A stretch of 64,000 bases of DNA from Escherichia coli (lineage in GTDB: Bacteria; Pseudomonadota; Gammaproteobacteria; Enterobacterales; Enterobacteriaceae): the NCBI RefSeq assembly GCF_016026235.1, contig NZ_CP065613.1; one strand, 5' to 3'. This document shows, in pieces, positions 33,471 to 33,920 of this stretch. A program made the position numbers and the translations under genes. The stretch's first letter is position 1. Each line of letters opens with the position of its first letter. The notes beneath the pieces are model-generated. The model made no database searches, was not told where the DNA came from, and saw nothing but the letters and a program-made list of their open reading frames with translations.

Positions 33471-33920
33471 ACAGCCGGATGCGGCGTAAACGCCTTATCC
33501 GGCCTACGGATGGCGCGAGAATTTGTAGGCCTGATAAGACGCGTTAGCGTCGCATCAGGCATCTGCGCACGACAGCCGGATGCGGCGTAAACGCCTTATC
33601 CGGCCTATGGATGGCGCGGGAATTTGTAGGCCTGATAAGACGCGCAAGCGTCGCATCAGGCATCTGCGCACGACAGCCGGATGCGGCGTAAACGCCTTAT
33701 CCGGCCTACGGATGGCGCGGGAATTTGTAGGCCTGATAAGACGCGCAAGCGTCGCATCAGGCATCTGCACACGACTGCCGGATGCGGCGTGAACGCCTTA
33801 TCCGGCCTACGGATGGCGCGGGAATTTGTAGGCCTGATAAGACGCGCAAGCGTCGCATCAGGCATCTGCACACGACTGCCGGATGCGGCGTGAACGCCTT
33901 ATCCGGCCTACATTTCGCCC
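33471..33920. repeat. Tandem BIME/REP array, about 4.5 copies of a 101-bp unit
   Basis: Unit gccggatgcggcgtaaacgccttatccggcctacggatggcgcgggaatttgtaggcctgataagacgcgcaagcgtcgcatcaggcatctgc repeated with period 101. Confidence 0.85.

Follow-up and report, generated by a model that had tools for sequence, protein, structure and literature searches.

The mhpE–mhpT spacer array of a non-K-12 Escherichia coli strain is a BIME-2 element and an allele of K-12 REP31

The spacer between mhpE and mhpT in this non-K-12 Escherichia coli strain carries a BIME-2 element of nine REPs, the local allele of the array listed for K-12 as REP31. REP and BIME elements have been known since the 1980s–90s and this array is already catalogued in K-12, so that it carries little weight as a discovery and nothing in it is novel. 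The account that very probably explains the array as a whole joins this identity to in-register gain and loss of whole units and to a proposed role of the hairpins in message stabilisation and attenuation.

Structure of the array

In the 64,000-nt window (the whole stretch of DNA analysed), TRF delimits a tandem array at 33466–33911 with a period of 101, 4.4 copies, 97% matches, no indels and a score of 822. The initial annotation had placed about 4.5 copies of a 101-bp unit at 33471–33920; the repeat finder returns the same period, and the two extents agree within 5–9 nt. The proposed periodicity also withstood autocorrelation over 33300–34100, in which lags 101 (0.62) and 202 (0.54) stand out from a background of about 0.30 at every other lag, and a repeat search found five copies of a 41-nt Y segment spaced exactly 101 nt apart. 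The array makes up most of the 579-nt untranslated spacer and is wholly extragenic between the mhpE stop and the mhpT start, its first REP beginning 48 nt past the mhpE stop codon (33425) and its last ending 93 nt before the mhpT ATG (34005). Its placement between these two genes, as first annotated, is secured by the profile matches that name both flanking ORFs.

31465–32415, plus strand: mhpF (NCBIfam equivalog model; RefSeq annotation of homologous loci agrees)
32412–33425, plus strand: mhpE, 4-hydroxy-2-oxovalerate aldolase, upstream gene (TIGR03217, 596 bits; RefSeq homologous loci concur)
33466–33911, no strand assigned: whole tandem array, BIME-2, nine REPs, 4.4 x 101 bp (TRF, repeat search, REP scan, K-12 REP31 coordinates)
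34005–35216, plus strand: mhpT, 3-(3-hydroxyphenyl)propionate transporter, downstream gene (NF008586, 619 bits; RefSeq homologous loci concur)

A general repeat search of the array reported no inverted repeats of at least 14 nt, because REP stems are short and interrupted; the REPs were therefore located by a dedicated regex scan. Each unit consists of a Y REP on the plus strand (34 nt), a tail-to-tail linker (17 nt), a Z2 REP on the minus strand (36 nt) and a head-to-head linker (14 nt), which together give 101 nt. The 34-nt Y-type palindrome of the unit reads GCCGGATGCGGCGTRAACGCCTTATCCGGCCTAC on the plus strand. Since the array both starts and ends with a Y REP, it holds five Y and four Z2 REPs.

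33474–33507, plus strand: Y REP 1, GCCGGATGCGGCGTAAACGCCTTATCCGGCCTAC (REP scan; identical to K-12 REP325 Y REPs; RNA hairpin of about -21.5 kcal/mol)
33508–33524, no strand assigned: first of four 17-nt tail-to-tail linkers, GGATGGCGCGRGAATTT, G-rich in the sense strand (REP scan, composition)
33525–33560, minus strand: Z2 REP 1, loop variant TAAC (REP scan)
33561–33574, no strand assigned: first of four 14-nt head-to-head linkers, ATCTGCRCACGACW (REP scan)
33575–33608, plus strand: Y REP 2, tail CTAT in place of CTAC (REP scan, repeat search)
33626–33661, minus strand: Z2 REP 2, GCCTGATGCGACGCTTGCGCGTCTTATCAGGCCTAC (REP scan; identical to K-12 REP325 Z2 REPs)
33676–33709, plus strand: Y REP 3 (REP scan)
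33727–33762, minus strand: Z2 REP 3 (REP scan)
33777–33810, plus strand: Y REP 4, loop variant GTGAAC (REP scan)
33828–33863, minus strand: Z2 REP 4 (REP scan)
33878–33911, plus strand: Y REP 5, the last (REP scan)

Eight of the nine palindromes end in CTAC and one in CTAT. The predicted hairpins contain 8 + 4 or 8 + 5 pairs around an internal mismatch and, according to RNA folding, are worth about -21 kcal/mol each on either strand; the whole spacer has a minimum free energy of -305 kcal/mol, compared with -225 +/- 6.5 for shuffled sequences (z = -12.4). The stems of the different REP types, GCCGGAT/ATCCGGC in Y, GCCTGAT/ATCAGGC in Z2 and GTCGGAT/ATCCGAC in a Y variant of the prpE–codB array, differ by compensatory changes, and it is therefore the palindrome itself that is conserved. 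At its borders, the array is bracketed by a perfect 9-bp inverted repeat, ATGACTGCC at 33428–33436 and GGCAGTCAT at 33924–33932, which closes the predicted RNA fold and is kept in all alleles, the single-REP allele included; about 0.7 such 9-mers are expected by chance per 600 nt. Just past the last REP, a GTAGGC at 33921–33926 resembles the foot of a lost inverted REP.

Two readings of the array other than a REP element are addressed directly by this anatomy. Open reading frames of 70–71 aa run through it on both strands (33580–33792 and 33681–33893 on the plus strand, 33555–33770 and 33656–33871 on the minus strand), and PGAP annotates a "hypothetical protein" pseudogene within the K-12-type array, as if the array encoded protein. 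However, the ORFs give no hit in Pfam with a cut-off of E <= 1, the single-REP allele lacks them, and because 101 is not a multiple of 3 the frame changes with each unit and is shifted by each unit gained or lost. The protein-coding reading, whose probability is practically nil, was rejected for want of a Pfam match and because the 101-nt period breaks the frame. The annotated pseudogene, a frameshifted partial call at 1932–2225 of the locus retrieved from the K-12-derived L-formLTE (NZ_CP169632.1), is an artefact of translating REPs. GC-rich hairpins at regular spacing might also suggest a classical intrinsic terminator or a CRISPR-like array, but a T-run follows no hairpin in the spacer, and no CRISPR-type spacer is unique, since both linkers recur along with the rest of the 101-bp unit. 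Both of these readings are refuted by the sequence and must be regarded as extremely improbable.

Assignment to BIME-2 and to REP31

REPs are defined (PMC3333891) as imperfect palindromes, 30–40 nt in length, whose foot carries a conserved GTAG/CTAC tetranucleotide and whose stem contains a mismatch. All nine palindromes of the array, 34 or 36 nt long, align with the Y and Z2 consensus REPs and have a GTAG/CTAC-type foot and an internal stem mismatch, and the sequence is both extragenic and dispersed, the array query having hit 26 places in the median E. coli genome. A BIME-2 element consists of z2 and y REPs in inverse orientation, repeated several times in tandem; the copies are well conserved within a locus and vary in number among strains (Ton-Hoang et al., PMC3333891). 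In the mhp array, Y on the plus strand alternates with Z2 on the minus strand throughout, the 4.4 tandem copies are 97% identical with linkers of 17 and 14 nt, and alleles of 1, 3, 5, 7 and 9 REPs occur among strains. The BIME identity proposed in the initial annotation could thus be sharpened to BIME-2 on the basis of alternating Y/Z2 orientation, the absence of an IHF site and strain-variable copy number. BIME-1 elements exist as a single copy of a Y REP paired with a 29-nt Z1 REP, with an L linker and an IHF site, and comprise the RIB/RIP elements (PMC3333891). The mhp array resembles them in being extragenic and in its inverted REPs but differs in having Z2 (36 nt) rather than Z1 (29 nt) REPs, in its tandem copies and in the IHF consensus WATCAANNNNTTR, for which no match was found in 33400–34000; a BIME-1 identity was ruled out on these grounds.

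In K-12 MG1655, REP31 is listed at 374931–375366 as a "Tandem" element of mhpE/mhpT in the supplement of Harris et al. (bioRxiv 10.64898/2026.03.23.713779), which is the source of the name; the RefSeq annotation of NC_000913.3 that was examined holds no REP features. Comparison of the two mhpE–mhpT spacers, as the initial annotation had suggested, establishes that the present array is an allele of REP31: locus, flanking genes, flanks, the 101-bp unit and the number of REPs (nine, in 4.4 units) are shared, and the spacer is 577 nt long in K-12 as against 579 nt here. The two alleles differ in detail. All four Z2 loops of K-12 REP31 read GTTAGC, whereas in this strain GTTAGC is found in the first and GCAAGC in the other three, and the last Y REP of REP31 is degenerate and 2 nt shorter.

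Related arrays: REP325 and prpE–codB

The array also has a close relative elsewhere in the K-12 chromosome. REP325, located between yjdM and yjdN and the source of naRNA1–6, is likewise a BIME-2 between co-oriented genes and has been described as Y-l-Z2 repeats (Qian et al.). Dissected in the yjdM-to-yjdN transcription sense, its Y REPs of 34 nt and Z2 REPs of 36 nt have exactly the sequences found in the mhp array, but its unit measures 100 rather than 101 nt and it contains 12 instead of nine REPs. Its 17-nt tail-to-tail linker, AAATTCCCGCACC(C/A)TCC, is the reverse complement of the mhp linker at 15–16 of the 17 positions, and its head-to-head linker is 13 nt long (AACGGTGCCGACT) where the mhp array has 14 nt (TGTCGTGCGCAGAT on the equivalent strand). 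The mhp array thus lies inverted with respect to flanking transcription when compared with REP325, so that its mRNA is complementary to the naRNA strand. This is reflected in composition: the C/G ratio of the sense strand is 0.95 in the mhp array versus 1.29 in REP325, and the sense tail-to-tail linker contains 2 C and 8 G in the former, 9 C and 1 G in the latter. Judged by these sequences, the mhp array is a close homologue of REP325 that is inverted relative to its flanking genes.

The only Rfam matches in the window are to RF02564 (naRNA4), and naRNA4 corresponds to one Y/Z2 unit of K-12 REP325 at yjdM–yjdN (Qian et al.). In the mhp array, one match falls on each Y/Z2 head-to-head pair.

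33528–33605, minus strand: RF02564 (naRNA4) match (Rfam)
33629–33706, minus strand: RF02564 (naRNA4) match (Rfam)
33730–33807, minus strand: RF02564 (naRNA4) match (Rfam)
33831–33908, minus strand: RF02564 (naRNA4) match (Rfam)

These four matches score 84.7–88.8 bits, the gathering score being 59.5; another four on the plus strand score 57.5–59.9 bits, of which one (59.9) exceeds the gathering score, and the prpE–codB array has six plus-strand matches of 65–70 bits. That the model matches the minus, antisense strand of the mhp array follows from the inversion of the array relative to its flanking genes as compared with REP325. Taken at face value, the scores could indicate that the minus strand gives rise to naRNA4-like nucleoid-associated small RNAs that bind HU and condense the chromosome, a role which Qian et al. 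(2015) proposed for REP325 RNAs, and many REPs have been reported to be transcribed. However, the Rfam model amounts to a single Y/Z2 unit of a BIME-2, which any such array will match; the match here is antisense to both mhpE and mhpT; and a scan of 33300–34100 detected no sigma-70-like promoter on either strand. Moreover, a 2026 re-examination by the same laboratory found REP325/naRNA4 to be without measurable nucleoid compaction or REP–REP contacts (bioRxiv 10.64898/2026.03.23.713779). A source of nucleoid-associated RNAs at mhp is therefore considered very unlikely, and the matches are read as copies of the BIME-2 unit.

Within the window, a REP regex scan found 29 REPs at seven sites. The largest counterpart of the mhp array is located between the co-oriented genes prpE and codB at 11069–11690 (period 94, 6.6 copies by TRF) and corresponds to REP26 of K-12 (Harris et al. 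supplement, bioRxiv 10.64898/2026.03.23.713779). It had been annotated as an array of the same architecture with a different unit length, and both are indeed Y/Z2 BIME-2 elements, with units of 101 bp at mhp and 94 bp at prpE–codB; the 7-nt difference arises from the linkers, which measure 17 versus 11 nt tail-to-tail and 14 versus 13 nt head-to-head. The Y variant of the prpE–codB array has the form GTCGGAT...ATCCGAC, and on the plus strand its orientation is opposite to that of the mhp array. It comprises about 14 REPs, including a degenerate Y REP at about 11515–11548 missed by the regex scan, in a spacer of 800 nt, compared with 329 nt in K-12 MG1655 (a difference of 471 nt, or five units). 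The prpB–prpC spacer (6344–6502, 159 nt) holds a single Z2/Y pair with REPs at 6376–6460, where the 439-nt spacer of K-12 harbors the 365-bp REP25. With one array shorter and the other longer than in K-12, copy number differs in both directions within this strain. The remaining REPs are a Y/Z1 pair downstream of codA (14417–14495), single Z1 and Y REPs near 18 kb (17928–17956 and 18603–18636) and a Z2/Y pair between yaiL and frmB (35881–35966). A different tandem repeat, of 51 bp in 2.4 copies (87% matches, TRF score 197), is found at 49998–50120.

Allelic variation among strains

The locus was searched for with the two flanks joined without the array against 5,426 complete E. coli genomes and is present in 4,923 of them. 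Alleles were sampled from 58 informative rows, picked at regular intervals along the ranking of these 4,923 genomes, in which the flank-to-flank distances fall into discrete classes, one 101-bp unit apart.

One Y REP only: 30 of 58 genomes
1.4 units, three REPs: 8 of 58 genomes
2.4 units, five REPs: 2 of 58 genomes
3.4 units, seven REPs: 4 of 58 genomes
4.4 units, nine REPs: 14 of 58 genomes

Six alleles that were retrieved have spacers of 175, 274, 377, 476, 478 and 577 nt, alongside the 579 nt of this strain, and their flanks are unchanged. As read from these allele sequences, the array expands and contracts by whole 101-bp units, always in register, which gives rise to arrays of 1, 3, 5, 7 and 9 REPs. 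Among the 5,426 complete genomes, the best match to the present allele is 99.1% identical, in two pieces, and one unit shorter. The window itself is about 99% identical to other strains; FDAARGOS_943, the genome nearest to it, matches at 99.9% identity over 8 kb and has the same unit variants but one unit fewer, and one unit must therefore have been gained or lost very recently. Since the Z2 loop variants differ between K-12 and this strain, the two nine-REP arrays arose by duplication of different units. Unequal recombination or replication slippage between units is the likely route of gain and loss, and strand exchange by the REP-associated transposase TnpA-REP/RAYT may contribute.

The same variability lends weight to a serious alternative, namely that the array is selfish or neutral REP/BIME DNA, kept and amplified by recombination and RAYT, with a copy number that drifts and no function specific to this locus. 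REP number ranges from one to nine among strains, the single-REP allele is the commonest, and the multi-copy state is dispensable in that about half of the sampled genomes make do with one REP. Near-identical genomes differ by one unit, the other arrays of the window have grown or shrunk relative to K-12 without an evident trend, and TnpA-REP cleaves and recombines BIMEs in vitro (PMC3333891). In contrast, REP325 measurably affects neighbouring genes, and compensatory changes preserve stem pairing in the different REP types. Purely neutral maintenance is thus given an appreciable but lesser probability, and it is not mutually exclusive with a modulatory role of the array.

Predicted effect on mhp expression

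According to folding and scanning, as many as nine stable hairpins can form in a transcript that crosses the spacer, a U-tract follows none of these, and no hairpin-plus-U terminator was detected within the mhpE–mhpT spacer. The sole such site in 33300–34100, where 0.5 would be expected by chance, is a terminator-like hairpin followed by TTTGTTTTTT at 34039–34069 on the sense strand, no more than 65 nt into the coding sequence of mhpT. With the MhpR operator palindrome as query, a match was obtained only at 26997–27013 in the mhpR–mhpA region, and no second operator was found upstream of mhpT. That these scans found no promoter, terminator or second operator is consistent with mhpT relying on read-through from the upstream genes.

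The following sequence of events is proposed for the array as a modulator of this read-through. A transcript leaving mhpE would fold into as many as nine hairpins of about -21 kcal/mol each. At these hairpins 3'-to-5' exonucleases would be halted, which would spare the upstream mhpABCDFE message from decay, and fewer transcripts would continue into mhpT through so long and structured an untranslated region. The number of units would then set, strain by strain, how much of the catabolic enzymes is made relative to the transporter. In support of such a mechanism, REP325 stabilises its upstream mRNA and cuts downstream expression 8–10-fold, partly via Rho (bioRxiv 10.64898/2026.03.23.713779), yields a ladder of hairpin-terminated RNAs and is itself partly bicyclomycin-sensitive. 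Genome-wide, upstream/downstream expression ratios are raised in tandem gene pairs that contain a REP, and REPs define stable 3' ends of Rho-terminated transcripts. REP effects are nevertheless context-dependent, and half-lives are not uniformly lengthened (Harris et al., bioRxiv 10.64898/2026.03.23.713779); no mhp entries were found in the searched supplements of one K-12 3'-end mapping (Term-seq) study. On balance, stabilisation of the mhp message together with a partial block of read-through into mhpT appears about evenly poised at this locus. The ribosome-stalling effect of REPs described by Liang et al. in 2015 reportedly concerns REPs within some 15 nt of the stop codon; the first REP here begins 48 nt past that of mhpE, and stalling should therefore not apply.

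Orientation may determine how such an effect comes about. Attenuation of the REP325 type through Rho calls for RNA on the transcribed strand that is C-rich, G-poor and little structured. In the orientation of REP325 and prpE–codB, the mRNA would expose C-rich linkers that could load Rho; in the inverted orientation of the mhp array, it exposes G-rich linkers and would offer only an exonuclease barrier and a structural roadblock. Because the sense strand is G-rich and inverted in comparison with REP325, stabilisation and structure-based attenuation are expected here rather than Rho loading on the array, and Rho loading on the mhp array itself seems doubtful and less likely than at REP325. Among the peaks listed from an in vitro Rho-binding screen, the only one near K-12 REP31 is on the antisense strand, a sense-strand peak overlaps K-12 REP26, and REP325 itself is missed.

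A role at the level of DNA has also been considered, in which the array would constitute a strong gyrase binding and cleavage site, possibly also a cruciform, and would regulate supercoiling between the mhp operon and mhpT. Gyrase cleavage sites in vivo are enriched in BIME-2 elements, mainly at Y REPs and independently of transcription (PMC6379681), and the mhp array contains five Y REPs. However, only a subset of BIME-2 elements is cleaved, and the mhp genes were not found in the searched part of that study's supplementary text. Such a role is judged unlikely compared with the hairpin-based stabilisation and attenuation outlined above.

Additional features of the window

Apart from its repeats, the window differs from K-12 in two respects. 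The prpE gene (9197–11044) bears an in-frame 13-codon deletion near 10763 relative to K-12, removing residues 523–535 (VAVVGVKDALKGQ); the deletion is flanked on each side by a VA(E)VAV repeat and falls in a conserved region of the acyl-CoA synthetase, and the PrpE enzyme of this strain may be impaired. Between lacI and mhpR, 24267–26028 is occupied by two minus-strand genes missing from K-12: one encodes a GlxA/FtrA-like AraC-family regulator, named ovrA (O-island 19) in some RefSeq genomes, and the other is a 262-aa ORF without an NCBIfam match. The interval 23000–31000 is covered to at least 80% in only 435 of the 5,426 genomes.

Significance

For genome annotation, the array accounts for both the spurious "hypothetical protein" call and the Rfam naRNA4 matches at this locus. 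For the biology of BIME-2 elements, it provides a clean natural allelic series of 1, 3, 5, 7 and 9 REPs at one operon junction, and REP325 and the mhp array form a matched, near-identical pair in opposite orientation that is suited to a test of how orientation and copy number bear on attenuation. As a tentative proposal, the orientation of a BIME-2 element relative to transcription may set which of its two known activities applies; combined with the series of one to nine REPs, the mhp array could then serve as a strain-specific dial of transporter versus catabolic enzyme expression.
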